From Lysobacterales bacterium (GTDB lineage: Bacteria; Pseudomonadota; Gammaproteobacteria; Xanthomonadales; SZUA-38), in the NCBI GenBank assembly GCA_030065125.1, contig JASJDM010000006.1, positions 1 to 64,000 of the forward strand: DNA of 64,000 nucleotides. Direction: 5' to 3'. Below, piece by piece: positions 2,419 to 14,287 of this stretch. Positions within the stretch are counted from its first letter, which is position 1. Every line of letters starts with the position of its first letter. The notes beneath the pieces were generated by a model. That model was not told the DNA's origin. It made no database searches and saw only the letters and a list, made by a program, of their open reading frames with translations. The translations under genes and the position numbers were made by a program.

Positions 2419-3330
2419 ATGGGCGGCGGCCACCACCATCACCATCCTGAGCAGGGCGATCGCCAGGTTCTCTGGGCAGTCGTCGTCAACCTGGTTCTCA
2501 CCGCCGCCCAGATGATCGGCGGCCTGCTGTCAGGCAGCCTCGCCCTGCTGGCTGACGCGGTGCACAACCTGAGTGATGCCCTGGCCCTGGGCATTGCCTT
2601 CGCCGCGCGCAGGATCGCGCGGCTGCCGTCCAACCATCGCATGACCTTCGGCTACGTCAGGGCCGAGCTGGTGGCCGCCCTGATCAACTACACCACGCTG
2701 ATCGTGATTGGCCTTACCCTGGTGTACCAGGCTTTCTGGCGCTTTTTTGAGCCCTCCCCTATCAACGGCTGGATGGTGGTGATCATCGCCGGCCTGGCGC
2801 TGGTGGTTGACCTGGTAACCGCTGCGCTGACCTGGCGGCTGTCTCGGGAAAGCATCAATATCCGGGCAGCATTCCTGCACAACGTCGCGGATGCACTGGG
2901 CTCAATCGGGGTGATCCTGGCGGGGACCGTCATCATCGTCTGGCAGTGGAACCTGATCGATCCGCTGATCACCCTGGCCATCGCCGGTTACATCCTGTGG
3001 CACGCTCTTTCGGAAATCGGCCAGGTCATCCGCATGCTGATGCTGGGTACGCCGGACGACGTGGACCTGACTGAACTGGTCCTGGAAGTGGAGCGGCTGG
3101 AGGGTGTGGAGGGCCTGCATCATGTCCACGTCTGGAATCTGCATGAACACCAGAAATCCCTGGAGGGCCACCTGGTGGTGGCTGACGCCAACTGGGACCG
3201 GGCCGAAACCATCAAACAATCCGTCCGGGCCTGCCTTCGCGAGCGCTTTGATATCGGGCACACCACGCTGGAGCTTGAGGCCCAGACCAGCCCCTGCCAC
3301 GACGGCGGCCTCAGCCTGGGCTCCACCTGA
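2419..3330 (+). CDS. cation diffusion facilitator (CDF) family divalent-metal efflux transporter
   Basis: Six transmembrane segments and CDF signature regions (HNLSDALALGIAF, a conserved Asp in TM5, and a C-terminal cytoplasmic domain). The N-terminus is His-rich (MGGGHHHHHPEQ). Confidence 0.85.
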   Translation: MGGGHHHHHPEQGDRQVLWAVVVNLVLTAAQMIGGLLSGSLALLADAVHNLSDALALGIAFAARRIARLPSNHRMTFGYVRAELVAALINYTTLIVIGLTLVYQAFWRFFEPSPINGWMVVIIAGLALVVDLVTAALTWRLSRESINIRAAFLHNVADALGSIGVILAGTVIIVWQWNLIDPLITLAIAGYILWHALSEIGQVIRMLMLGTPDDVDLTELVLEVERLEGVEGLHHVHVWNLHEHQKSLEGHLVVADANWDRAETIKQSVRACLRERFDIGHTTLELEAQTSPCHDGGLSLGST

Positions 3331-3348
3331 ATCAAAGGAGGTTTATCC

Positions 3349-3768
3349 ATGGCCGGCAACAAAACCCACAGGAACACGCAGAGCGTCGATACCTACCTGG
3401 CGTCGGTGGACAACGAACAGCGTCGCCGGGACAGCCTGGAGGTGCTGGAAATGATGCGGGACATCACGGGAATGAAGCCCGAGATGTGGGGCAGCTCCAT
3501 GGTTGGGTTCGGCAGCTACCACTACAGGTACGACAGCGGTCGCGAGGGCGACTGGTTTCTGACAGGATTTGCCCCGCGCAAGCAGGCCCTGACCCTGTAC
3601 ATCATGGATGGCTTTGCCGGACAGGATGCCCTCATGGAAAAGCTCGGCAAGCACAAAACCGGCAAATCCTGCCTGTACATCAATAAACTGGACGACATTC
3701 ATCGACCCACCCTGCGTCAACTGATCCGCAAGTCCGTGACCCATCTGAAGAAGAAGTACGACGCCTGA
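3349..3768 (+). CDS. DUF1801 (YdhG-like) domain protein
   Basis: 139 aa with a strong SD (AAAGGAGG) 8 nt upstream. Composition and motifs are typical of the DUF1801 family. Confidence 0.55.
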   Translation: MAGNKTHRNTQSVDTYLASVDNEQRRRDSLEVLEMMRDITGMKPEMWGSSMVGFGSYHYRYDSGREGDWFLTGFAPRKQALTLYIMDGFAGQDALMEKLGKHKTGKSCLYINKLDDIHRPTLRQLIRKSVTHLKKKYDA

Positions 3769-3865
3769 GGCGCGGACAAACCGGCCCGCCAGGATTTTCT
3801 TGGGTTTTCCGTCGCCTGCCCGGTAAAATTGCGGGTTTGCTCCCGCACCAGCAGAGGAAAGCGTT

Positions 3866-4684
3866 TTGGCCCCCAGCAACAGCAGCCGCGTCCGGCGTGG
3901 ATGGCTCATTCCCATCGGCGGCGCCGAGGAAAAAAAAGACAACCCGGTCATCCTGCGGCGATTCTGCAAACTGGCGGGCGGGCGCAATGCCAAGATCCTG
4001 GTCATCCCCACTGCTTCGGAGCTGGAGGATACGGGGCCCGGCTACGTCCGTATTTTCGAGGAGATGGGCGCACGCTCACGCTACATTCCGGTCAATCGTC
4101 GGGAAGACTGCTTCGACGACGAGATCCAGCGGGTGCTGGAACGCAGTACGGCGATTTTCATTACCGGAGGCAACCAACTGCGACTGTCCACCATCCTGGG
4201 GGGAACCCCGGTGGCGAAAATCATCCGTCGCATGAACAGCGACGGCGCGCCGGTGGCGGGAACCTCCGCCGGGGCTGCCATTATTCCTGAGCATATGATC
4301 GCCGGAGGTCCCACTGGGCCGACCCCGACTGAGCACGGGGTGGTCATGGCGCCCGGACTGGGGCTGACCAACAAGGTCATCGTGGACCAGCATTTCCGGC
4401 AGCGCGACCGGCTGGGCCGACTGCTGACGGCGCTGTCCTACAATCCGTTTGCCACCGGCATTGGAATCGACGAGGACACCGCCGCATTTATCGACCCCGA
4501 CGGCATGCTGGAGGTCGTGGGCAGCGGCGGCATCACCATTGCTGACCCGTCAGACCTGCACCACTCATCCATGCACGATGCCAGGGAAGCTGAACCCATT
4601 TGCCTGATCGGGCTGAAACTGCATATTCTCGCCGCGGGGGGCCGGTACGACACCGAGACTCGCCAGGCATTCGCCGACGATTAG
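3866..4684 (+). CDS. cphB: cyanophycinase (peptidase S51)
   Basis: GWLIPIGGAEEKK N-terminal motif and the catalytic Ser context GTSAGAAI are both typical of CphB. 272 aa, TTG start, immediately upstream of cphA. Confidence 0.88.
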   Translation: MAPSNSSRVRRGWLIPIGGAEEKKDNPVILRRFCKLAGGRNAKILVIPTASELEDTGPGYVRIFEEMGARSRYIPVNRREDCFDDEIQRVLERSTAIFITGGNQLRLSTILGGTPVAKIIRRMNSDGAPVAGTSAGAAIIPEHMIAGGPTGPTPTEHGVVMAPGLGLTNKVIVDQHFRQRDRLGRLLTALSYNPFATGIGIDEDTAAFIDPDGMLEVVGSGGITIADPSDLHHSSMHDAREAEPICLIGLKLHILAAGGRYDTETRQAFADD

Positions 4685-4737
4685 CCTGGATTATTCGTAA
4701 ACCCGCTGGTTTGACGCTTACGTAGAGGGGACCGTCA

Positions 4738-7548
4738 ATGAAGATTTTGGCAACAAACGTATACCGGGGACCCAACGTGTACGCCCTGTTCCGGGTTATC
4801 CGACACCAGGTTGACCTGGGCGTGCTGGAGGAGTGGCCTTCCGGTCGCATCGGCGAAGCGTTCATAGAGGGCCTGATCTCCGCTCTGCCCGGATTACACG
4901 AACACGGCTGCTCCTACGGCGAGGCCGGTGGCTTTGTCCGGCGCCTGCGTGAAGATGAAGGCACCTGGATGGCCCACATCTGGGAACACGTGACCCTGGA
5001 ACTGCAGAACATGGCCGGCTCCCAGGTCACCTTCGGTAAAACCCGCTCGATTCCGGATCAGCCGGGCTGCTACAACATGGTCTACCAGTACAAACAGCGC
5101 GACGTGGGGCTGGAAGCTTCCCGCATCGGGCTGCAGCTGCTGTTCAGCCTGCTGCCGGCGGAGCTGCAGGACAGCCTCGGCGACGAGCGGGATGCGGAAT
5201 TCGATTTTGAAACCGAACGGGACGATTTCATCCGCTTTGCCCAGCGCAAGGAACTGGGACCCAGCACCGCTTCCCTGGTCCAGGCGGCCGAGGATCGGGG
5301 CATCCCCTGGCTGCGCCTGAACAACTACTCACTGGTGCAGTTTGGCCACGGCAGGTACCAGCAGCGTATCCAGGCCACCATCACCAGCAAGACCACCCAC
5401 ATTGCGGTGGAGATCTCCTGCGACAAAGAGGAAACCCACAACCTGCTCAGCGACCTGGGCCTGCCTACCCCGCGCCAGCGCATGGTGTACTCGGAGGGCC
5501 AGGCGGTCCGGGCAGCCCGGCATATTGGCTACCCCGTAGTGGTCAAACCCCTGGACGCCAACCATGGCCGTGGTGTCACCATCGACATCAACTCCGACGA
5601 AGAGGTGGAAACCGCCTTTGCGGCGGCACGCAAGCGGGGCAACTCCCGGGCCGTGCTGGTGGAGAGCTTTATCCGCGGCCTGGACCACCGCATGCTGGTG
5701 GTGGACGGCGAACTGGTGGCCGTGGCCCAGCGAGTACCCGGGCACGTGGTGGGTGACGGCCAGCGCTCCATCGCGGAACTGGTGGATATCGTCAACCAGG
5801 ACCCGCGCCGGGGCATTGGCCACGAAAAGGTGCTCACCCAGCTTGAGCTGGACCAGCAGGCCCAGCGCCTGATGTCCCAGGCCGGCTTTGACGAAACCAC
5901 CATCCTGCCCGAAGGTGAGACCTTCTACCTGCGCTCCACCGCCAACCTGTCGACCGGCGGCACGGCCGTTGACCTGACGGACTCCACCCACCCGGACAAC
6001 CGCGACATGGCCGAGCGGGCCGTTATGGCCGTTGGCCTGGACGTGGGCGGTGTGGATTTCCTCACCGAAGACATTACCCAGTCCTACAAGGACGTTGGCG
6101 GCGCCATCGTGGAAGTCAACGCAGCCCCGGGATTCCGCATGCACGTGGCGCCTTCGGAGGGCGAGCCCCGCGACGTCTCCGGCAAGGTCATGGACATGCT
6201 GTTTCCGCCGGGAACACCCAGCACCATCCCCATCGCCGGCATCACCGGCACCAACGGCAAAACCACCACCGCCCGCATGCTGTCCCATATTCTCAAGACC
6301 GCTGGCCACACCGTGGGTACCACCTCCACTGAGGGGGTCTACATCGACGGCCATCTGTCAGTGAAAGGTGATATGACCGGACCGTCGGCCGCCAACATCG
6401 TCCTGCGCGACCCCAACGTCGACGTGGCCGTGATGGAGACCGCCCGCGGCGGCATCGTGCGCTCGGGACTCGGCTACAGCGAATGTGACGTGGCGGCCTG
6501 TCTCAATATCTCGGCTGACCACCTGGGCCTGCGCGGGATCGACACCCTGGAGCAGCTGGCCGAGGTCAAGCGCGTAGTGGTGGAGGTGGCCCGGGACACC
6601 GCCGTGCTCAACGCCGATGACGAACTGTGCCTGAAGATGGCCGACTACACCCGGGCGGCCAATCTGTGTTACGTCACCATGAATTCCGCCCATGCCCTGG
6701 TGAAAGAGCACATCCAGTCCGGCGGCCGCGCCGTGGTGCTGGAACAGGGCATCAACGGCGACATGATCACCATCTACGACAACGGCACCCACATTCCGCT
6801 GCTGTGGACCCACATCGTTCCGGCCACCATTGAAGGCAAAGCGGTTCACAACGTGCAGAACGCCATGTTTGCCGCGGCCCTGGCCTTTTCCATGGGCATT
6901 TCCCTGGAAGACATCCGCCACGGCTTGCGCACCTTCACCACGACCTTCTTCCAGGCGCCCGGACGCATGAACGTGTATGACGAACACCCCTTCCGGGTGA
7001 TCCTGGACTACGCCCACAACCCGGCCGCCATCAGCACCATGTGCCAGACGGTGGACCGTATGGACGTTTCCGGCCGGCGCATCTGCGCCCTGTCCGCTCC
7101 GGGGGACCGGCGGGACGAAGACGTGGAGGCCATGGCCACCGAGGCCGCCGGCCATTTCGACCACTACGTGCTGAAGGCTGACGACAATCGCCGGGGTCGC
7201 GGTGAAGACGAGATTCCCCGAATGCTGATGCGGGCACTGCTGGCCAATGGCGTGCCCGAAGATGCCATCGAGATGGTGCCGGATGAAGCTGAGGCCGTGG
7301 ATCACTGCCTCAAACTGGCCCACGAGGGAGACCTGCTGCTGATATTCGGCGACGACATCCGCCGCAGCTGGAAGCAGATCATCCATTACCAGACCGAGGA
7401 GTATCAGGGCACCAAGCCCGCTGAATCGCCAAAACAGGTCAGTTACGTGGAGCCCGACCCGGATGCATTCACCCTTGGCGCAGGCGACAAACTGATCCGG
7501 GACGATCGGGGCGTGCGCCTGGCCCGGGACGAGGAAGAGTCTGACTGA
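4738..7548 (+). CDS. cphA: cyanophycin synthetase, full length (N domain, ATP-grasp domain and Mur-ligase-like domain)
   Basis: 936 aa. ATP-grasp segment (VVVKPLDANHGRGVT ... AVDLTDSTHPDN). Mur-ligase P-loop ITGTNGKTTT. Conserved CphA N-terminus MKILATNVYRGPNVY. Confidence 0.93.
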   Translation: MKILATNVYRGPNVYALFRVIRHQVDLGVLEEWPSGRIGEAFIEGLISALPGLHEHGCSYGEAGGFVRRLREDEGTWMAHIWEHVTLELQNMAGSQVTFGKTRSIPDQPGCYNMVYQYKQRDVGLEASRIGLQLLFSLLPAELQDSLGDERDAEFDFETERDDFIRFAQRKELGPSTASLVQAAEDRGIPWLRLNNYSLVQFGHGRYQQRIQATITSKTTHIAVEISCDKEETHNLLSDLGLPTPRQRMVYSEGQAVRAARHIGYPVVVKPLDANHGRGVTIDINSDEEVETAFAAARKRGNSRAVLVESFIRGLDHRMLVVDGELVAVAQRVPGHVVGDGQRSIAELVDIVNQDPRRGIGHEKVLTQLELDQQAQRLMSQAGFDETTILPEGETFYLRSTANLSTGGTAVDLTDSTHPDNRDMAERAVMAVGLDVGGVDFLTEDITQSYKDVGGAIVEVNAAPGFRMHVAPSEGEPRDVSGKVMDMLFPPGTPSTIPIAGITGTNGKTTTARMLSHILKTAGHTVGTTSTEGVYIDGHLSVKGDMTGPSAANIVLRDPNVDVAVMETARGGIVRSGLGYSECDVAACLNISADHLGLRGIDTLEQLAEVKRVVVEVARDTAVLNADDELCLKMADYTRAANLCYVTMNSAHALVKEHIQSGGRAVVLEQGINGDMITIYDNGTHIPLLWTHIVPATIEGKAVHNVQNAMFAAALAFSMGISLEDIRHGLRTFTTTFFQAPGRMNVYDEHPFRVILDYAHNPAAISTMCQTVDRMDVSGRRICALSAPGDRRDEDVEAMATEAAGHFDHYVLKADDNRRGRGEDEIPRMLMRALLANGVPEDAIEMVPDEAEAVDHCLKLAHEGDLLLIFGDDIRRSWKQIIHYQTEEYQGTKPAESPKQVSYVEPDPDAFTLGAGDKLIRDDRGVRLARDEEESD

Positions 7549-7553
7549 GATCC

Positions 7554-9281
7554 ATGTTTGAGCTGACCGACTCCCGGCGTCTGACCGGGCCCAACCTGTT
7601 CTCGGACGATCCGGGCGCGGTCGCTGAGGTAAATGGCCCGGCCAATACCCCGGTGGCACCGGTCGACGGAGACCCTGCCACCCTGGCCGAGCGCTGGCGT
7701 CATCACGCTTTGGCCCTCACCCAGGCCCTGGGCTGGGGCAGCCGGGTCATCAGCCGGGCATTCAGCGGCGGCGTCAGCCAGTACCTTTCGGCGCCCGTTG
7801 ACGTACTGTATGCCGCTACCGAGGTCAACGAAGCCGCCTGGGCGGCCTGCAGCGCGGAGCTGACGGGACAGCCGGCGCCGGACTTCGACCGGGCACTGGA
7901 TCGCCTGCGCGGGCTGGTCGCCGAGGAACAGAACCCGGCGCTGCTGGAACTGAAAGCGGCGGCCAGCCAGCGGCGCGCACGATTTCTCAGTGACGACGAC
8001 TTCGCCTCGGTGGGATACGGACCCGGTGCATTAACCTGGCCGGTTGACCAGCTGCCAGCGCCCGGAGATGTCGCATGGGATTCCGTCAGCAATATCCCGG
8101 TCGGCCTGGTTACCGGCACCAATGGCAAATCCACCACCGTCCGGCTGGCTGCGTCGGTACTCACGGCCGCGGGCCGGCAGACCGGGGTGACCTCCACGGA
8201 TTACATTCGGGTCGCCGACGAGATCATCGATACCGGCGATTACTCCGGTCCCGGCGGGGCCCGCACCCTTCTGCGTGACCAGCGGGTCGAGGTGGCCGTG
8301 CTGGAGGTAGCCCGGGGCGGCATGCTGCGGCGCGGCCTGGGCGTCAACCAGGCCGACGCGGCGGTGGTGACCAACGTGGCCGCGGACCACCTGGGCGAAT
8401 GGGGCATCAACAGCGTGGCCGAAATGGCCACCGCCAAGTTCATCGTCTGCCGGGCCCTGCCCCCGGGCAAACCGCTGATCCTCAATGCCGAAGACCCGGC
8501 CAGCGTGGAGCAGGCCCGACAGGCCCCGGCCAACACCAAGACCATCGTCTGGTTCAGCGAACGCGAAAACCATCCACTGGTCCAGTCCCACTGCATGAAC
8601 GGCGGACAGGCCTGGGTGGTCAGTTCCGGGATGATTACCCGGATTCACCAGGGACAGCCTGTCGCCGTAGTTCCGGTGGCGGACGTGCCCGTTACCCTGG
8701 GGGGCGCGGCGAAATACAACGTGCAGAATGCCCTGGCTGCCGCGGCCCTGTGCCATGCCCTGGGCGCCACGGACCAGGCCATTGCCCACGGTCTGGCATC
8801 GTTCAGGGGGACGCCGGAAGAGAACCCCGGCCGTGGCAACTTCTTCGAGGGCAAAGGCATTCGGGTGCTGGTGGATTTCGCCCACAATGAACACGGCCTG
8901 ACCGCCATCGCCGAGACCCTGGCCCGAATTCCCGCAAAGCGTCGCCTGGTCATGATCGGCCAGGCGGGAGATCGCACGGATGAGCTGATTGCTGACCTGG
9001 TGAAAGCCGCGCTGAAAGCCGGTCCGGATCATCTGATGGTGGTCAAACTGCCTGGATATGAACGAGGCCGCCAGCCCGAGGACGTGCCCCGCCTGATTCA
9101 CCAGTTGGCCCTTGAGGGCGGGCTGTCGGAGGCCCGGATCGAGCACGCCGAAGACCCCGTCGACGGGACCCGCAGGGCCCTGGCCTGGGCCCGGGAAGGT
9201 GACTTTCTCCTGCTGCTGGCGCTGACCCAGCGGGGCCCCTGCCTCAACCTGGTCCAGCGCGAACTCGGTCAAACCGGGTAG
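7554..9281 (+). CDS. truncated cyanophycin synthetase paralog (CphA N domain plus Mur-ligase-like domain, no ATP-grasp domain)
   Basis: 575 aa. Starts 5 nt after the cphA stop. CphA-like N domain (MFELTDSRRLTGPNLFSDDPG) joined directly to the P-loop VTGTNGKSTT. No ATP-grasp segment is detectable. Confidence 0.8.
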   Translation: MFELTDSRRLTGPNLFSDDPGAVAEVNGPANTPVAPVDGDPATLAERWRHHALALTQALGWGSRVISRAFSGGVSQYLSAPVDVLYAATEVNEAAWAACSAELTGQPAPDFDRALDRLRGLVAEEQNPALLELKAAASQRRARFLSDDDFASVGYGPGALTWPVDQLPAPGDVAWDSVSNIPVGLVTGTNGKSTTVRLAASVLTAAGRQTGVTSTDYIRVADEIIDTGDYSGPGGARTLLRDQRVEVAVLEVARGGMLRRGLGVNQADAAVVTNVAADHLGEWGINSVAEMATAKFIVCRALPPGKPLILNAEDPASVEQARQAPANTKTIVWFSERENHPLVQSHCMNGGQAWVVSSGMITRIHQGQPVAVVPVADVPVTLGGAAKYNVQNALAAAALCHALGATDQAIAHGLASFRGTPEENPGRGNFFEGKGIRVLVDFAHNEHGLTAIAETLARIPAKRRLVMIGQAGDRTDELIADLVKAALKAGPDHLMVVKLPGYERGRQPEDVPRLIHQLALEGGLSEARIEHAEDPVDGTRRALAWAREGDFLLLLALTQRGPCLNLVQRELGQTG

Positions 9282-9327
9282 TAACGGGCTTCACGTGAAT
9301 TGAAGGCTCGCCGGGCCGTTGTGGATC

Positions 9328-10014
9328 TCAGACCACCCGGGTGGATTGGTCGCCGTGCTGCCGCAGCGTACCGGGCGGCAACACCGCTTCGATCCGTTCC
9401 ATCACGTCCAGCCGGTAAAGGAGGTCGTTGACATAGTCCATCTGGTCGGTCTCCAGCACCAGCACCTCGCTCATGCGGTAGCGTTCGACCCAGGCCTCGT
9501 AAAGCCGCTCCAGCCGCTTCAGGTAGGACAGCGGCACGTCCTGCTCCATGGCCCGGCCCCGCAGCCTGATGCGCCGTCGCAGGGTACGCATGGAGCAGCG
9601 CAGGTAGATCATCAGGTCGGGCGGCTGGATGGCCTCGAGAATGGTCTGATAGAAACCCCAGTAGGTCGCCCAGTCGCGGTCATCGATCTGTTTCATTTCG
9701 TGCAGTGCCGTGGCGAAAATTTCCGCGTCTTCGAAAATGGTCCGGTCCTGCACCACCACCCCGGTACAGCGGTCCAGCTGCTGGTGAATTCTGAACTTGC
9801 TGCTCAGGAAATACAGCTGGGAGTGGAATGCCCAGCGTTTCATGTCCCGGTAAAAATCCGGCAGGTAGGGATTTTCATCATTGGGTTCGTAGAAGGGTTC
9901 AATGCCGTAGGTGGAAGTCAGAAAATCCACCAGGGACGACTTCCCGGCACCCATGTTGCCGGCAATGGCAATGGATTTTCGGCGACCGCGCGATTGATTT
10001 GTTTTTTTGCTCAC
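9328..10014 (-). CDS. deoxynucleoside kinase (dAK/dGK family)
   Basis: P-loop IAIAGNMGAGKSS, an ERS-like region and an LID region. 228 aa, typical of bacterial deoxyguanosine/deoxyadenosine kinases. Confidence 0.8.
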   Translation of the reverse strand: MSKKTNQSRGRRKSIAIAGNMGAGKSSLVDFLTSTYGIEPFYEPNDENPYLPDFYRDMKRWAFHSQLYFLSSKFRIHQQLDRCTGVVVQDRTIFEDAEIFATALHEMKQIDDRDWATYWGFYQTILEAIQPPDLMIYLRCSMRTLRRRIRLRGRAMEQDVPLSYLKRLERLYEAWVERYRMSEVLVLETDQMDYVNDLLYRLDVMERIEAVLPPGTLRQHGDQSTRVV

Positions 10015-10106
10015 GCGTCAGAACCCAATGACGTACCATGACCTGCTTTCGACCGGGCCGATGATGAACGACCTGATGCAATTCCTCAACGCCAGCGGAA
10101 CCATGC

Positions 10107-11957
10107 ATGACCGCTGAATCAGTCCCCATTGCCATGTCTGACCCGGTGACGGTCCTCAACGAGGTCTACGGCTACCCCAGCTTTCGCGGCAGCCAGGCGG
10201 ACATCATCGACGCCGCCGTGGCGGGCCGCGACTGCCTGGTGCTGATGCCCACGGGGGGCGGAAAATCCCTGTGTTACCAGATTCCCAGTCTGGTGCGACC
10301 GGGTGTGGGACTGGTGGTATCGCCCCTGATCGCGCTGATGAAAGACCAGGTGGCGGCGCTCAAGCAGCTGGGCATCGCCGCGGCATACCTCAATTCCACC
10401 CTGGATGCCGCTGAGCAGCGGCTGGTCCTGGAGCAGCTGCATCAGGGGGAACTGAAGCTGCTGTACGTGGCCCCGGAACGGCTGCTCAAGCCGGGCACCC
10501 TGGATCGCCTGAGCCAGCTGGAGATTGCGCTGATCGCCATCGACGAGGCCCATTGTGTGTCCCAGTGGGGCCACGATTTCCGCCCGGACTACCTGTCCCT
10601 GAACCAGCTGGCGGAGCGCTTTCCCGGCGTTCCGAGGATGGCCCTGACCGCTACGGCGGACGGCCCCACGCGGGAGGAAATGGTGCAGCGGCTGGCCCTG
10701 CACCAGCCGGCCAGCTTCATCAGCCCGTTTGACCGCCCCAACATCCGCTACTCGGTGCAGCCCAAGTCCGACGGGCGTCGCCAGTTGAGCCGGTTCCTGG
10801 AGGGGCATCGCAACGAGTCCGGCATCGTCTACTGTCTGTCCCGCAAAAGCGTGGATGCCACCGCCCGCTGGCTCAACACCCACGGCTTCAATGCCCTGCC
10901 CTACCACGCCGGGCTCTCTACCAGTGAGCGCAACAGCAACCAGGAGCGGTTTCTGCGGGAAGATGACCTGGTGATCGTGGCCACCATTGCCTTCGGCATG
11001 GGCATCGACAAACCCGACGTTCGTTTCGTGGCCCACCTGGACCTTCCGCGCAGCATCGAGGCCTACTACCAGGAAACCGGCCGCGCCGGCCGCGACGGCG
11101 AACCCGCGGATGCCTGGATGATCTACGGCCTGCAGGACGTGGTCAGGCTGCGCCTGATGCTGGAGGAGTCCGACGCGGGCGAGGCCAAGAAACGCGTCGA
11201 GCGGGCCAAGCTGGATGCCCTGCTGGGGTGGTGCGAGGTCACGGACTGCCGGCGCCGGTCGCTGCTGGCCTATTTTGACGACGATTACCCCGGCGACTGC
11301 GGCAATTGTGATACCTGCCTCAGTCCCCCCAAGCAGTGGGATGCCACCGTGGCCGCCCAGAAGCTGTTGTCGTGCATCTATCGGACTGGCCAGCGTTTCG
11401 GTGCGGTACACGTCATCGACGTTTTGCGCGGAAGTGAAAACACCAAGGTCCAGCAGAATGGCCACCACCGGCTCAGCACCTACGGCATTGGCAAGGAACT
11501 GGCCGCCGGCCAGTGGCGATCGGTGGTACGCCAGCTGATTGTTCAGGGATTCATCCGCGTGGACCCGGAGCGCTACAACGCCCTGGCCCTGACGCCGGAC
11601 AGCCGCGCGTTGCTGCGGGGAGAAACCCAGGTGACCCTGCGCCAGGACACCGTCCCGGAGTCCCGCGCACCTTCCCGGCGCAAGACCAGTACCTCCGCCC
11701 GGCAGCAGGGCCCGTTGTGGGAGGCCCTGCGGGACTGCCGGCGCAGGCTGGCCGAGCAGTCCGGCGTCCCGCCCTACGTGGTATTCCATGACGCCACGCT
11801 CAGCGCCATGGCCGAGCATCGACCCGTCACCGCGGAAGAACTGCTGGAGATATCGGGCGTCGGCCAGAAAAAGCTGGAGCGTTACGGAGAAGTTTTTATG
11901 GACGTGATCAGGCAGCACGTCCAGGCCAGCGCGCCAGATCCCGACCGGACCGTGTAG
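10107..11957 (+). CDS. recQ: ATP-dependent DNA helicase RecQ
   Basis: Helicase motifs [19 protein letters not shown] and SAT. Zn-binding Cys cluster CGNCDTC. C-terminal HRDC domain. 616 aa. Confidence 0.95.
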
Positions 11958-11987
11958 AATCCGGTCACGACGCAACCTGCGGAAACG

Positions 11988-12749
11988 GTGATGAAACTGA
12001 TCAAAACGCTTGTGGTGACCGCCATCGTGCTGCTGGGCGGCCTGACAGGCTGCGCTCCTGCCAATGGCGAGGCTTCACTGACGGTCCTGGTGACCGGCGC
12101 CAATCGTGGCCTGGGCCTGGAATTTGCCCGCCAGTTTCATGAGCGGGGCTACCAGGTCATCGGTACGGCCAGGAAGCCTGGCAGCGCAGAGGAACTGAAA
12201 GCCCTGGGCGTGCGGGTGGAACAGCTGGACGTGACCGATGCCGGCAGCGTCAAGGCTTTGGCCGAGCGCCTCAGTGATTTGCCCATCGACATCCTGATCA
12301 ACAACGCCGGCATCAGCGGCCACGGTCCCGCTTCGTTCCTTGAACATGATTTCGACCAGTTGGGATTCACCTTCGAGGTGAACAGCCTGGGACCCATGCG
12401 GGTGACCCAGGCGCTTTTCCCCAACCTGGAAAGCGGAGACGCCAAGAAAGTGGTGCACATTACCAGCCGGATGGGCAGCATCGAGTTGAACGGCGGCGGC
12501 TACTACGGCTACCGGGCCAGCAAGGCCGCGCTGAACATGCTGAACAAATCCCTGTCGGCCGAACTCGGCGCCCAGGGCTTCGTTTGCGTAGTGCTGCATC
12601 CCGGCTGGGTACAGACCGACATGGGAGGGCCCAACGCCACCCTCACGCCCCAGCAGAGCATCGCCGGAATGATCCGGGTGATCGACGGGCTCGACAGCGC
12701 TTCCAACGGCGGATTTTTCGACTACCAGGGTGAAGAGATTCCCTGGTAG
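11988..12749 (+). CDS. short-chain dehydrogenase/reductase (C-factor/CsgA-like) with a lipoprotein signal peptide
   Basis: TGANRGLGLEF cofactor motif, NNAG motif and a YxxxK (YRASK) catalytic pair. The N-terminal 28 aa form a signal peptide with lipobox L-T-G-C. Confidence 0.8.
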   Translation: MMKLIKTLVVTAIVLLGGLTGCAPANGEASLTVLVTGANRGLGLEFARQFHERGYQVIGTARKPGSAEELKALGVRVEQLDVTDAGSVKALAERLSDLPIDILINNAGISGHGPASFLEHDFDQLGFTFEVNSLGPMRVTQALFPNLESGDAKKVVHITSRMGSIELNGGGYYGYRASKAALNMLNKSLSAELGAQGFVCVVLHPGWVQTDMGGPNATLTPQQSIAGMIRVIDGLDSASNGGFFDYQGEEIPW

Positions 12750-12865
12750 CCCCGCCGGCAATCCGGCTGGCGCGTCACTGCTAAGTAAAAGTCACGATAG
12801 CCACCAGCCCGCCAAATCTTTGTACTTTCCCCTGACCGATACGGGGTTTTTTACGGCCTCGACAC

Positions 12866-12888
12866 ACGCCCGGAAACGGGCGTTTTTA
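12866..12888 (+). promoter_or_regulatory. hairpin plus T5 tract in the nqrA leader (terminator of the upstream SDR gene or attenuator)
   Basis: Stem ACGCCCG / CGGGCGT with loop GAAA followed by TTTTT, about 17 nt upstream of the nqrA ATG. An SD (GGAAGGGG) follows the structure. Confidence 0.35.
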
Positions 12889-12904
12889 CTGGAAGGGGAC
12901 CGGC

Positions 12905-14287
12905 ATGCAGCGCAGGCAAATAAAAATCAAGCGCGGGCTGACACTGCCCATTGCCGGCGCACCTGTCTCCGATGCCGGCGCAAAGGACGGTGGGGATCCA
13001 CGGCCGATTCGGTCCGTGGCCCTGCTGGGCCCTGACTACCGCGGGCTGAAACCCACGCTGAAGGTGACCCAGGGCGACCGGGTCCGACTGGGTCAGACCC
13101 TGTTCGAGGACAAGAGCAATCCCGGCGTCAAGTTTACAGCCCCCGCGGCGGGTACCGTCAGCGCGGTCAACCGCGGTGCCAGGCGCGCCCTGATCTCGGT
13201 GGTGATCCAGCTTGAAAGTGACGACGAGATCCAGTTTCCCCGCTACGAGGTGGACCAGCTGCCGCTGCTGGACCGTGACGCGGTTCGGACCTCGCTGCTG
13301 GATTCGGGATTGTGGACTGCCCTGCGCAAGCGGCCATACGGCAAGATCCCATCACCGGAAGCGGAACCCGCAGCGCTGTTCATTACTGCTATGGACAGCA
13401 ACCCGCTGGCGGTAGACCCCGGTGACCTCGTCCAGCGCCACGGGGCTGATCTGAATGCCGGCATCCTGGCCCTGTCCCGGCTGCTCGGCGGACCGGTCTA
13501 TTTCTGCTGCGCACCGACGGCCGCTACCGATGAAGTGGTTGACCTGCCCGACGACCGCCTTCGGCTTGTGGAGTTTTCCGGGCCACACCCCTCCGGTCTC
13601 CCCGGAACCCATATCCATTTCCTGAACCCGGTGGCAGCCGAGGGCCCCGAGGCCTGGTACCTGGACCTGCAGGACGCCATCGCCATCGGCAAGCTGTTTC
13701 TCACCGGCCGGCTGTGGACCCGCCGGTACGTCACCCTTGCTGGCCCCCGCGCGGCAAACCCCCGGCGGGTAGAGACCCGCCTGGGCGCCAATATCACCGA
13801 CCTGTGTCGCGACGAAGTCAAGCCCGGCCCCCAGAGGTTGATTTCCGGCTCCGTGTTCAACGGGCACCAGGCCCGGGATTACATGGACTACCTCGGACGG
13901 TACGCTCGCCAGGTCACCGCCCTGGAGGAAGGTGAGCGCCGTCGCTTCTTCGGCTGGCTCGCCCCGGGTTCGGACCGGTATTCCGCCATCAATGCTTTTG
14001 TCTCCCGGCTCGGTCGGCGACGCGATTTTCCGCTGACCACTTCCCAGAACGGCAGTCCGCGGGCCATGGTCCCTATCGGCAACTTTGAGAAAGTCCTGCC
14101 CCTGGACATGCTGCCGGCGCCGCTGCTGAAGTCGCTCATCGTTCGTGACACCGATTCAGCCCAGGCCCTGGGGTGCATGGAACTGGACGACGAAGACCTG
14201 GCGTTGTGTTCTTTTGTCTGCCCCAGCAAGTACGACTACGGTGGCTTCCTGGTGGAGGCGCTGGCCCAGATCGAGAAGGAAGGCTGA
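12905..14287 (+). CDS. nqrA: Na+-translocating NADH-quinone reductase subunit A
   Basis: Conserved NqrA N-terminus [15 protein letters not shown]. 460 aa. First gene of nqrABCDEF. Confidence 0.93.

Follow-up and report, generated by a model that had tools for sequence, protein, structure and literature searches.

Why a bacterium that already encodes a complete cyanophycin synthetase should keep a second, shortened copy of the enzyme directly behind it is the question raised by a stretch of 64,000 nucleotides (nt) from a Lysobacterales bacterium (contig JASJDM010000006.1 of assembly GCA_030065125.1, positions 1–64,000 of the forward strand), hereafter referred to as the window. The genes for a cyanophycinase (cphB) and for cyanophycin synthetase 1 (cphA1) are followed there by a third reading frame at 7554–9281 (+), whose product of 575 amino acids (aa) is called X throughout. 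X is a cyanophycin synthetase paralog from which the ATP-grasp core is missing, and which keeps a predicted N domain, a short stub of the ATP-grasp (G) domain and a complete Mur-ligase-like (M) domain with both its core (Mcore) and its lid (Mlid). This architecture is drawn from Pfam searches, an AlphaFold (AF2) model and Foldseek comparisons.

The gene layout given in a preliminary description of this DNA (a cyanophycinase frame with a TTG start, then frames of 936 and 575 aa separated by 5 nt) holds exactly, and so do the identities assigned to the first two genes. The cphB frame (3866–4684, +; 272 aa) begins with a TTG codon located about 7 nt downstream of the end of a Shine–Dalgarno-like GAGGAA. 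Its product matches Peptidase_S51, contains the cyanophycinase nucleophile motif GTSAGA together with the motif GGAEEK, and scores 247.3 bits against TIGR02069, above the cut-off of 126.6 that defines a cyanophycinase. The complete cyanophycin synthetase 1 of 936 aa encoded at 4738–7548 (+) reaches 1134 bits against TIGR02068 (NF010623; cut-off 850) and is matched by four Pfam domains, namely the N domain PF18921, ATP-grasp, Mur_ligase_M and Mur_ligase_C. The N, G and M domains extend over approximately aa 1–170, 171–496 and 497–880, with a C-terminal tail thereafter, and the protein aligns end to end with the solved enzymes 7lgn, 7lgm and 7lg5, with an E-value of 0 for the first two. Its N domain carries C58, H80, E83 and H84 (window 4909–4992; spacing Cx21), which correspond to the C...HxxEH motif of the primer-generating peptidase that Sharon et al. 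described in CphA1 (PMC9262961). The stop codon of cphA1 (TGA) lies at 7546–7548 and the X frame starts after the 5-nt gap; X is probably co-transcribed, and probably also translationally coupled, with cphB and cphA1.

Pfam matches in X are limited to Mur_ligase_M (PF08245, aa 186–399, E 2e-23) and Mur_ligase_C (PF02875, aa 426–555, E 4e-15), which fall within Mcore (aa 178–419; 8085–8810, +) and Mlid (aa 420–575; 8811–9278, +), respectively, and the P-loop TGTNGKST occupies aa 187–194 (8112–8135). Against TIGR02068, X scores 360.9 bits (E 1e-107), below the 850-bit cut-off and over model positions 476–848 only, and its scores fall well short of the cut-offs of all peptidoglycan Mur-ligase families. 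The M domain of X (aa 178–575) is 35% identical to that of the neighbouring CphA1, and its best relatives of solved structure are four CphA1s (E 4e-65 to 2e-55). Judged by sequence, the paralogy of the two M domains is far beyond chance, with E-values of 1e-65 to 1e-107. CphA1 structures are available from Synechocystis (7LG5, 7LGJ and 7LGQ), Trichodesmium (7WAC), A. baylyi (7LGM) and T. morbirosei (7LGN), and the family alignments discussed here comprise the window X with 79 further X sequences, 69 linked CphA1s, four solved CphA1s and MurE and MurF of E. coli.

The N-terminal 177 residues of X (7554–8084, +) had been taken for a CphA N domain in the preliminary description, which holds true by predicted fold and not by sequence. 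No Pfam or NCBIfam family matches aa 1–177, BLASTP against the N domain of the neighbouring CphA1 returns nothing, and PF18921 matches none of 20 N domains of the X family even at E≤10. An hhalign comparison limited to the N domains, with profiles ending at Su residue 165, covers no more than the initial 16 residues, which form an R-x-x-G-P-N strand-loop, with an E-value of 0.055. By contrast, the full-length AlphaFold model of X, obtained from a 55-sequence alignment with a predicted local distance difference test (pLDDT) score of 92.4 and a predicted template modelling (pTM) score of 0.91, finds Synechocystis CphA1 as its top Foldseek match in the PDB (E 8e-41, TM-score normalised to X 0.83). 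The structural alignment with SuCphA1 runs across the whole 869-residue target; the TM-score for MurE is only about 0.5. Since no more than about 70% of X is M domain, a score of 0.83 requires superposition of the N domain too, in the same orientation and with the G domain skipped. Moreover, a separate model of residues 1–180 (pLDDT 93) yields 14 Foldseek matches at E≤1e-3, all of them CphA1 or CphA2 chains (TMq 0.52–0.60), and the next match is noise. The N-terminus of X is thus modelled as a CphA-type N domain, recognisable only by its predicted fold and packed on M as in the solved CphA1s.

The N domain of X lacks the zinc peptidase site Cx19HxxEH, since no His or Cys is conserved within aa 1–177 among the 80 X sequences; in CphA1s this endo-cyanophycinase site is present in about 80% of cases. 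The residues that are invariant in this part of the family are R8, R9, T11, G12, W48, R68, D83, L85 and Y86, to which P13 and N14 can be added in the 55-member alignment. The GPN loop of X corresponds to the SuCphA1 loop that contacts the M domain through Y14 and I17 (PMC9262961).

With regard to the G domain, X was said at the outset to contain no ATP-grasp segment, which agrees with the lack of any ATP-grasp match in Pfam and NCBIfam, with the predicted model, in which none is seen, and with the mere 177 residues that precede M. A check for a cryptic ATP-grasp domain uncovers only a stub of about 35 residues. This stub does, however, amend the claim that N is fused directly to M, as it lies between the two and is homologous to the start of Gcore. 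Using a CphA1 profile extended into the G domain, hhalign aligns X 89–158 with CphA1 125–205 (E 1.4e-3), collinear with the GPN match. Within this alignment X 128–158 (NPxLLxLxxAA...FLxDDDxxSxGxG) corresponds to CphA1 174–205 (GPSTxxLVxAA...IPWxRLNxxSLVQxGxG), the opening part of Gcore in the domain scheme of TeCphA1, and the remnant as a whole can be placed at aa 126–158 of X (7929–8027, +). It is supported by one pairwise profile comparison, by collinearity and by Foldseek alignments that are longer than the 161-residue N domain; hhalign in global mode is meaningless here. The survival of the beginning of the G domain suggests that the ATP-grasp core has been deleted, and the simplest reading, on evidence that is modest, is that about 280 residues of this core were excised from an ancestor with all three domains and that X is not a pre-fusion relic.

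The catalytic residues of the M domain can be compared with those whose roles are described for TeCphA1 and SuCphA1 (PMC9427784, PMC9262961). The P-loop lysine K499 of these enzymes corresponds to K192 of X, the Mg ligands T500, T522 and E558 to S193, T215 and E251, the catalytic pair D585/H586 to D278/H279, and K602, at the carbamyl-Lys position of Mur ligases, to K295. In the lid, R731 and H748, which contact ATP, are found as R427 and H444, R777 of the GDR motif as R474, and R805/R807 of the RGR motif as R504/R506; N311 can be listed with the Mcore residues and D441 with those retained in Mlid. The acceptor-side loop is also alike, GD(Y)SGP in X and GD(M)TGP in CphA1. At the nucleotide level, the P-loop regions of the two paralogous M domains appear as a 57-nt direct repeat (6219–6275 and 8087–8143, 77% identical). 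The M-domain residues that the structural papers tie to function are at least 97% conserved across the 80 X sequences, except for S193, an S/T position whose conservation in the 55-member set is at least 90%. As the mean pairwise identity of these 80 sequences is only 46%, X is neither a decaying copy nor an obvious pseudo-enzyme, and the degenerate motifs that might have marked it as one are not seen.

X is not restricted to the window. Among genomes scanned at one per GTDB species, more than 410 loci encode an X relative, a number which is a lower bound, and the best 80 of them were examined. These come from about eight phyla and include Gamma- and Alphaproteobacteria, Bacteroidota/Rhodothermales, Gemmatimonadota, Planctomycetota, Acidobacteriota, Actinomycetota (Nitriliruptorales) and Neomarinimicrobiota. 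In nearly all of those with enough flanking sequence, cphB, a three-domain cphA1 and X are found on one strand (tblastn with separate domains), the exceptions being two loci with an inverted cphB and two Acidobacteriota loci with cphA1 on the other strand. The median gap between the cphA1 stop codon and the X start is about 9 nt. All of the 69 X-linked CphA1s contain the C...HxxEH motif, which is missing from the A. baylyi and T. morbirosei enzymes of known structure, and a functional correlation between X and an active CphA1 N domain is possible within this sample. Furthermore, a search of 1.84 billion representatives with an X N-domain profile returned 788 clusters at E≤1e-3; the best 150 of these are 556–645 aa long or obvious fragments, none has the length of CphA1, and the domain is almost always N-terminal. 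With regard to individual loci, in an Acidobacteriota metagenome-assembled genome (MAG) two divergent cphB-cphA1 pairs lie on either side of X, on the strand opposite to it (locus L074, 2217–13810), and in another locus (L079) the nearby cphA1 gives a fragmented G-domain match; both depart from a gene order that is uniform elsewhere.

Clustering of the neighbouring reading frames adds a link to cyanophycin breakdown. Of the 80 loci, 37 encode an IadA-like amidohydrolase upstream of cphB, and in 13 a gene for an IaaA-like Asparaginase_2 lies on the downstream side of X (such isoaspartyl dipeptidase-type neighbours are found, for instance, at 2817–4214 of locus L029 and 4974–6041 of locus L039). 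The final step of cyanophycin breakdown is known to be carried out by enzymes of these two types (PMC10206079). Homologues of either type are missing from the whole 64 kb of the window, so that its dipeptidase must be encoded elsewhere or be of another type.

From the architecture, the intact catalytic residues and the conserved synteny that have been observed, a substrate, an activity and a physiological role of X can be inferred. In the solved CphA1, the N-Mcore-Mlid unit holds a chain with an undecorated C-terminal Asp and ligates Arg to it (PMC9427784). We hold, with moderate confidence, that X would be an active ATP-dependent ligase which acts in trans on cyanophycin and forms the beta-Asp isopeptide bond, thereby completing, accelerating or altering side-chain decoration. 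The N-Mcore cleft of X would hold the end of a cyanophycin chain; with ATP on the P-loop and Mg held by S193, T215 and E251, the free beta-carboxylate of the terminal Asp would be phosphorylated, and an incoming amino acid, held by the lid (GDR474, R504 and R506), would attack through its amino group to form the isopeptide bond. X would in this way carry out the second half-reaction of CphA1 on the polymer made by its neighbour, and the incoming amino acid could be Arg, as in CphA1, or another one. In the absence of the backbone-extending G domain, X cannot extend the backbone. The roles put forward in the preliminary description, those of a modifier or repair enzyme or of an adder of another amino acid such as Lys, are plausible.

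Several observations weigh against this proposal. The literature searched holds no biochemical or genetic data for any member of the X family. The partner CphA1s all have intact M domains, so a second enzyme for the same reaction looks redundant, and the contacts through which G domains assemble the CphA1 tetramer are missing from X. In addition, the lid of X has diverged. Of four acidic positions that are invariant in CphA1, three are lost in X, where D801 (100% in CphA1) is replaced by P/E/A, D802 (97%) by G/D/E and D857 (95%) by L/H, and the fourth, D781 (100%), is kept only partly. X has in turn invariant arginines of its own, R237, R260 and R560, and this combination suggests that the substrate of X may differ from that of the CphA1 M domain. 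In the column-by-column comparison the diverged lid is a real, family-wide pattern. Y230 and L557 are further residues particular to X.

The redundancy puzzle posed by the partner's intact M domain makes a variant with altered specificity attractive. X would then perform the same chemistry with another amino acid, such as lysine, ornithine, citrulline or even an acidic or neutral one, or on a more acidic, under-decorated poly-Asp, and the product would be a chemically distinct polymer. We regard this as a possibility worth keeping, although one that is more doubtful than probable. It draws on the lid residues and the X-specific arginines described above, as well as on the change of K/R799 to E/D and on acceptor-side changes from CphA1 to X, in which G524 becomes aromatic, Y526 becomes R/K, D528 becomes G and M537 becomes Y. 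In MurE, the DNPR motif and the G464–E468 loop bind the incoming amino acid. The column of the MurE DNPR motif is occupied by the D801–R805 stretch in CphA1 and by (Y)(L/E)RGR in X, and R560 of X falls in the column of MurE E468, in a lid alignment to MurE that is approximate. The diverged residues could line the amino-acid pocket, which would imply an altered specificity; they could instead bind polymer and not the free amino acid, as part of a charged lid surface of the kind suggested to guide the polymer in CphA1 by Miyakawa et al. (PMC9427784). Neither the net charge nor the number of conserved charged residues per domain is decisive for the substrate of X. It is tentatively conceivable, to a similar and minor degree, that hundreds of bacteria of sea and soil use X and CphA1 as a two-enzyme system whose product, owing to the different specificity of X, is a cyanophycin-like polymer that is chemically distinct, mixed or decorated more completely.

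An unlikely role for X, in comparison with the decoration of existing chains, is that of an initiator, or primer synthase, which would use free Asp and Arg to form beta-Asp-Arg or very short primers and so spare CphA1 its very slow first steps. The truly primer-independent first ligations of CphA1 are indeed very slow (PMC9262961), X would have the one activity required for the first isopeptide bond, and it is tightly coupled to cphA1. Nonetheless, this role is weakened by the primer-generating C..HxxEH site present in all 69 X-linked CphA1s, by which priming is already provided for, and the predicted N domain of X is complete, a domain known to hold polymer and not free amino acids.

Somewhat less likely again is a non-catalytic partnership, in which X would bind CphA1 or the granules, for instance to control chain length or to shield chain ends from CphB, with ATP serving only as a switch. 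The short intergenic gap does suggest co-production at a 1:1 ratio, and in CphA2 the N and M modules persist in non-catalytic roles (PMC10273328). However, the M module of CphA2 has lost its P-loop and lid, whereas in X the residues D278–H279 and K295 and the GDR and RGR motifs are invariant besides those that bind ATP. X does share with MurE and MurF its central and C-terminal domains, the P-loop, the carbamyl-Lys position, the DH and GDR motifs and, presumably, the acyl-phosphate chemistry. That X is merely a MurE/MurF-type peptidoglycan ligase, or another peptide ligase, which happens to adjoin cphA1 is nevertheless highly improbable, since the annotation of relatives as 'UDP-N-acetylmuramyl tripeptide/pentapeptide synthase' and weak NCBIfam matches to murE (103.9 bits, cut-off 257) and murF (64.6 bits, cut-off 289) stand against an N-terminus with the CphA fold in place of a UDP-binding domain, an M domain about 32% identical to those of CphA1s and only 21–23% identical to E. 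coli MurE and MurF, a location outside the dcw cluster and a synteny with cphB and cphA1 that is kept across phyla.

Among known systems, X resembles CphA1 most closely, with a predicted N fold packed on Mcore, the GPN loop at the N–M interface, a complete M domain and a place in the same operon, and differs from it in lacking the ATP-grasp core and the C-terminal tail, in an N domain beyond sequence recognition and in the lid changes already described. The comparison with CphA2 (7TA5, 8FXH) is also instructive. Both appear as cut-down derivatives of CphA1 with one catalytic module and a non-peptidase N domain, the N domains of CphA2, of T. morbirosei CphA1 and of X all being without the zinc peptidase site. 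CphA2 consists of N, G and a truncated, inactive M (PMC10273328), and thus retains G together with an M that has neither P-loop nor lid; X is the reverse, with a full M including P-loop and Mlid and no G, so that the earlier view of the two as mirror images is borne out. CphA2, for its part, polymerises beta-Asp-Arg dipeptides.

The 2007 grouping of Fuser and Steinbuchel is said to be phylogenetic only. Its Group V 'CphA-prime' proteins are near-full-length and retain the ATP-grasp region, which X does not. According to the version of this grouping reproduced by Vollmers et al. (PMC3646047 Table S2), these proteins are encoded in betaproteobacteria (Bordetella, Cupriavidus and Nitrosomonas) by a second CphA-family gene directly beside a Group IV cphA, which is reminiscent of X. 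In the same table, Group VI CphAs of Colwellia psychrerythraea, Francisella tularensis and Octadecabacter are each accompanied by a 'Group VII cyanophycin ligase-like' protein, and the Group VII accessions of Colwellia (YP_268602) and Francisella (YP_170102) are consecutive with those of CphA. Two Colwellia loci of the present set (L045 and L054) show the order cphB-cphA1-X. Given this order and the adjacency of Group VII to Group VI CphA in the table, X probably belongs to Group VII. Francisella, in which cphA affects the expression of virulence genes (PMC2763202), seems to harbour relatives, and a study of pseudomurein has found 'MurE/MurF' sequences of Francisella and of a Solemya symbiont to group with CphA (bioRxiv 10.1101/2022.11.30.518518).

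The X gene is not mentioned in a bioinformatic survey of cyanophycin clusters (PMC10206079), and the literature searched contains no paper that describes the N+M architecture or tests the function of X. The preliminary description had called such paralogs poorly characterised, which is right as far as functional studies go; they are not obscure, however, being a conserved operon partner in hundreds of species. The existence of the family is not new, since it was probably catalogued in 2007 as Group VII, whereas its architecture, the breadth of its conservation and its diverged lid seem, as far as can be told, to be undescribed.

With regard to its origin, the M domain of X is 31.9% identical to those of cyanobacterial CphA1s and 31.7% to those of gammaproteobacterial-type CphA1s, and the latter two groups share 42.8% identity with each other. 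Being about equally distant from both, X did not arise by recent duplication of its neighbour. In a neighbour-joining tree of M domains with E. coli MurE and MurF as the outgroup, CphA1 forms a single clade in 82 of 100 replicates and X in only about half of them; because this tree is poorly resolved and the outgroup distances saturate, the identities are preferred over it. X may have split off before the radiation of CphA1, or it may simply evolve faster. The G and M domains of X-linked CphA1s are mostly 63–85% identical to the window enzyme (tblastn), including those of Bacteroidota, Planctomycetota and Gemmatimonadota, while across the same loci X is only 41–59% identical to the window X, which suggests horizontal spread of the whole cluster together with faster evolution of X.

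Cyanophycin synthesis has been attributed to one enzyme, CphA1, or to CphA2, which uses dipeptides. The retention of X directly after cphA1 in more than 410 species-level genomes suggests an extra, unstudied step of the pathway in many non-cyanobacteria. If X completes or changes the decoration of the side chains, effects on the composition, solubility and degradability of the polymer would follow, with relevance for the engineering of cyanophycin as a biomaterial or for nitrogen recovery, and the system would represent a natural experiment in which the two half-reactions of a polymerase are separated. Should X have a different specificity, it would be a ready-made tool for tailoring the polymer. 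The database record of the exact protein reads 'Mur ligase family protein [Xanthomonadales bacterium]', and a plain annotation of this kind hides a conserved extra component of cyanophycin metabolism.

The surroundings of the cluster in the window do not bear out its initial designation as an 'island'. Its GC content (0.62–0.65) is similar to that of its flanks, no tRNA gene is found within 20 kb, and flanking repeats and mobility genes are also missing, so that a mobile element was rejected. Upstream, a small DUF1801 protein is encoded at 3349–3768 (+), between a cation diffusion facilitator (CDF) zinc/cation transporter (2419–3330) and cphB, in an adjacency to the cluster that is not kept in other loci. 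Downstream, a plus-strand frame at 9319–10041 (240 aa) was considered as a fourth gene of the cluster and rejected, as it belongs to no family and has no homologue in the 80 loci; the real gene there is that of a deoxynucleoside kinase (PF01712, E 2e-52) at 9328–10014 (−), which overlaps it. Further downstream, 10107–14287 contains recQ (TIGR01389, 825 bits), a short-chain dehydrogenase/reductase (SDR) oxidoreductase and nqrA, the start of the Na+-NQR operon, a typical chromosomal housekeeping context that is consistent with a gammaproteobacterial (Xanthomonadales/Lysobacterales) MAG.

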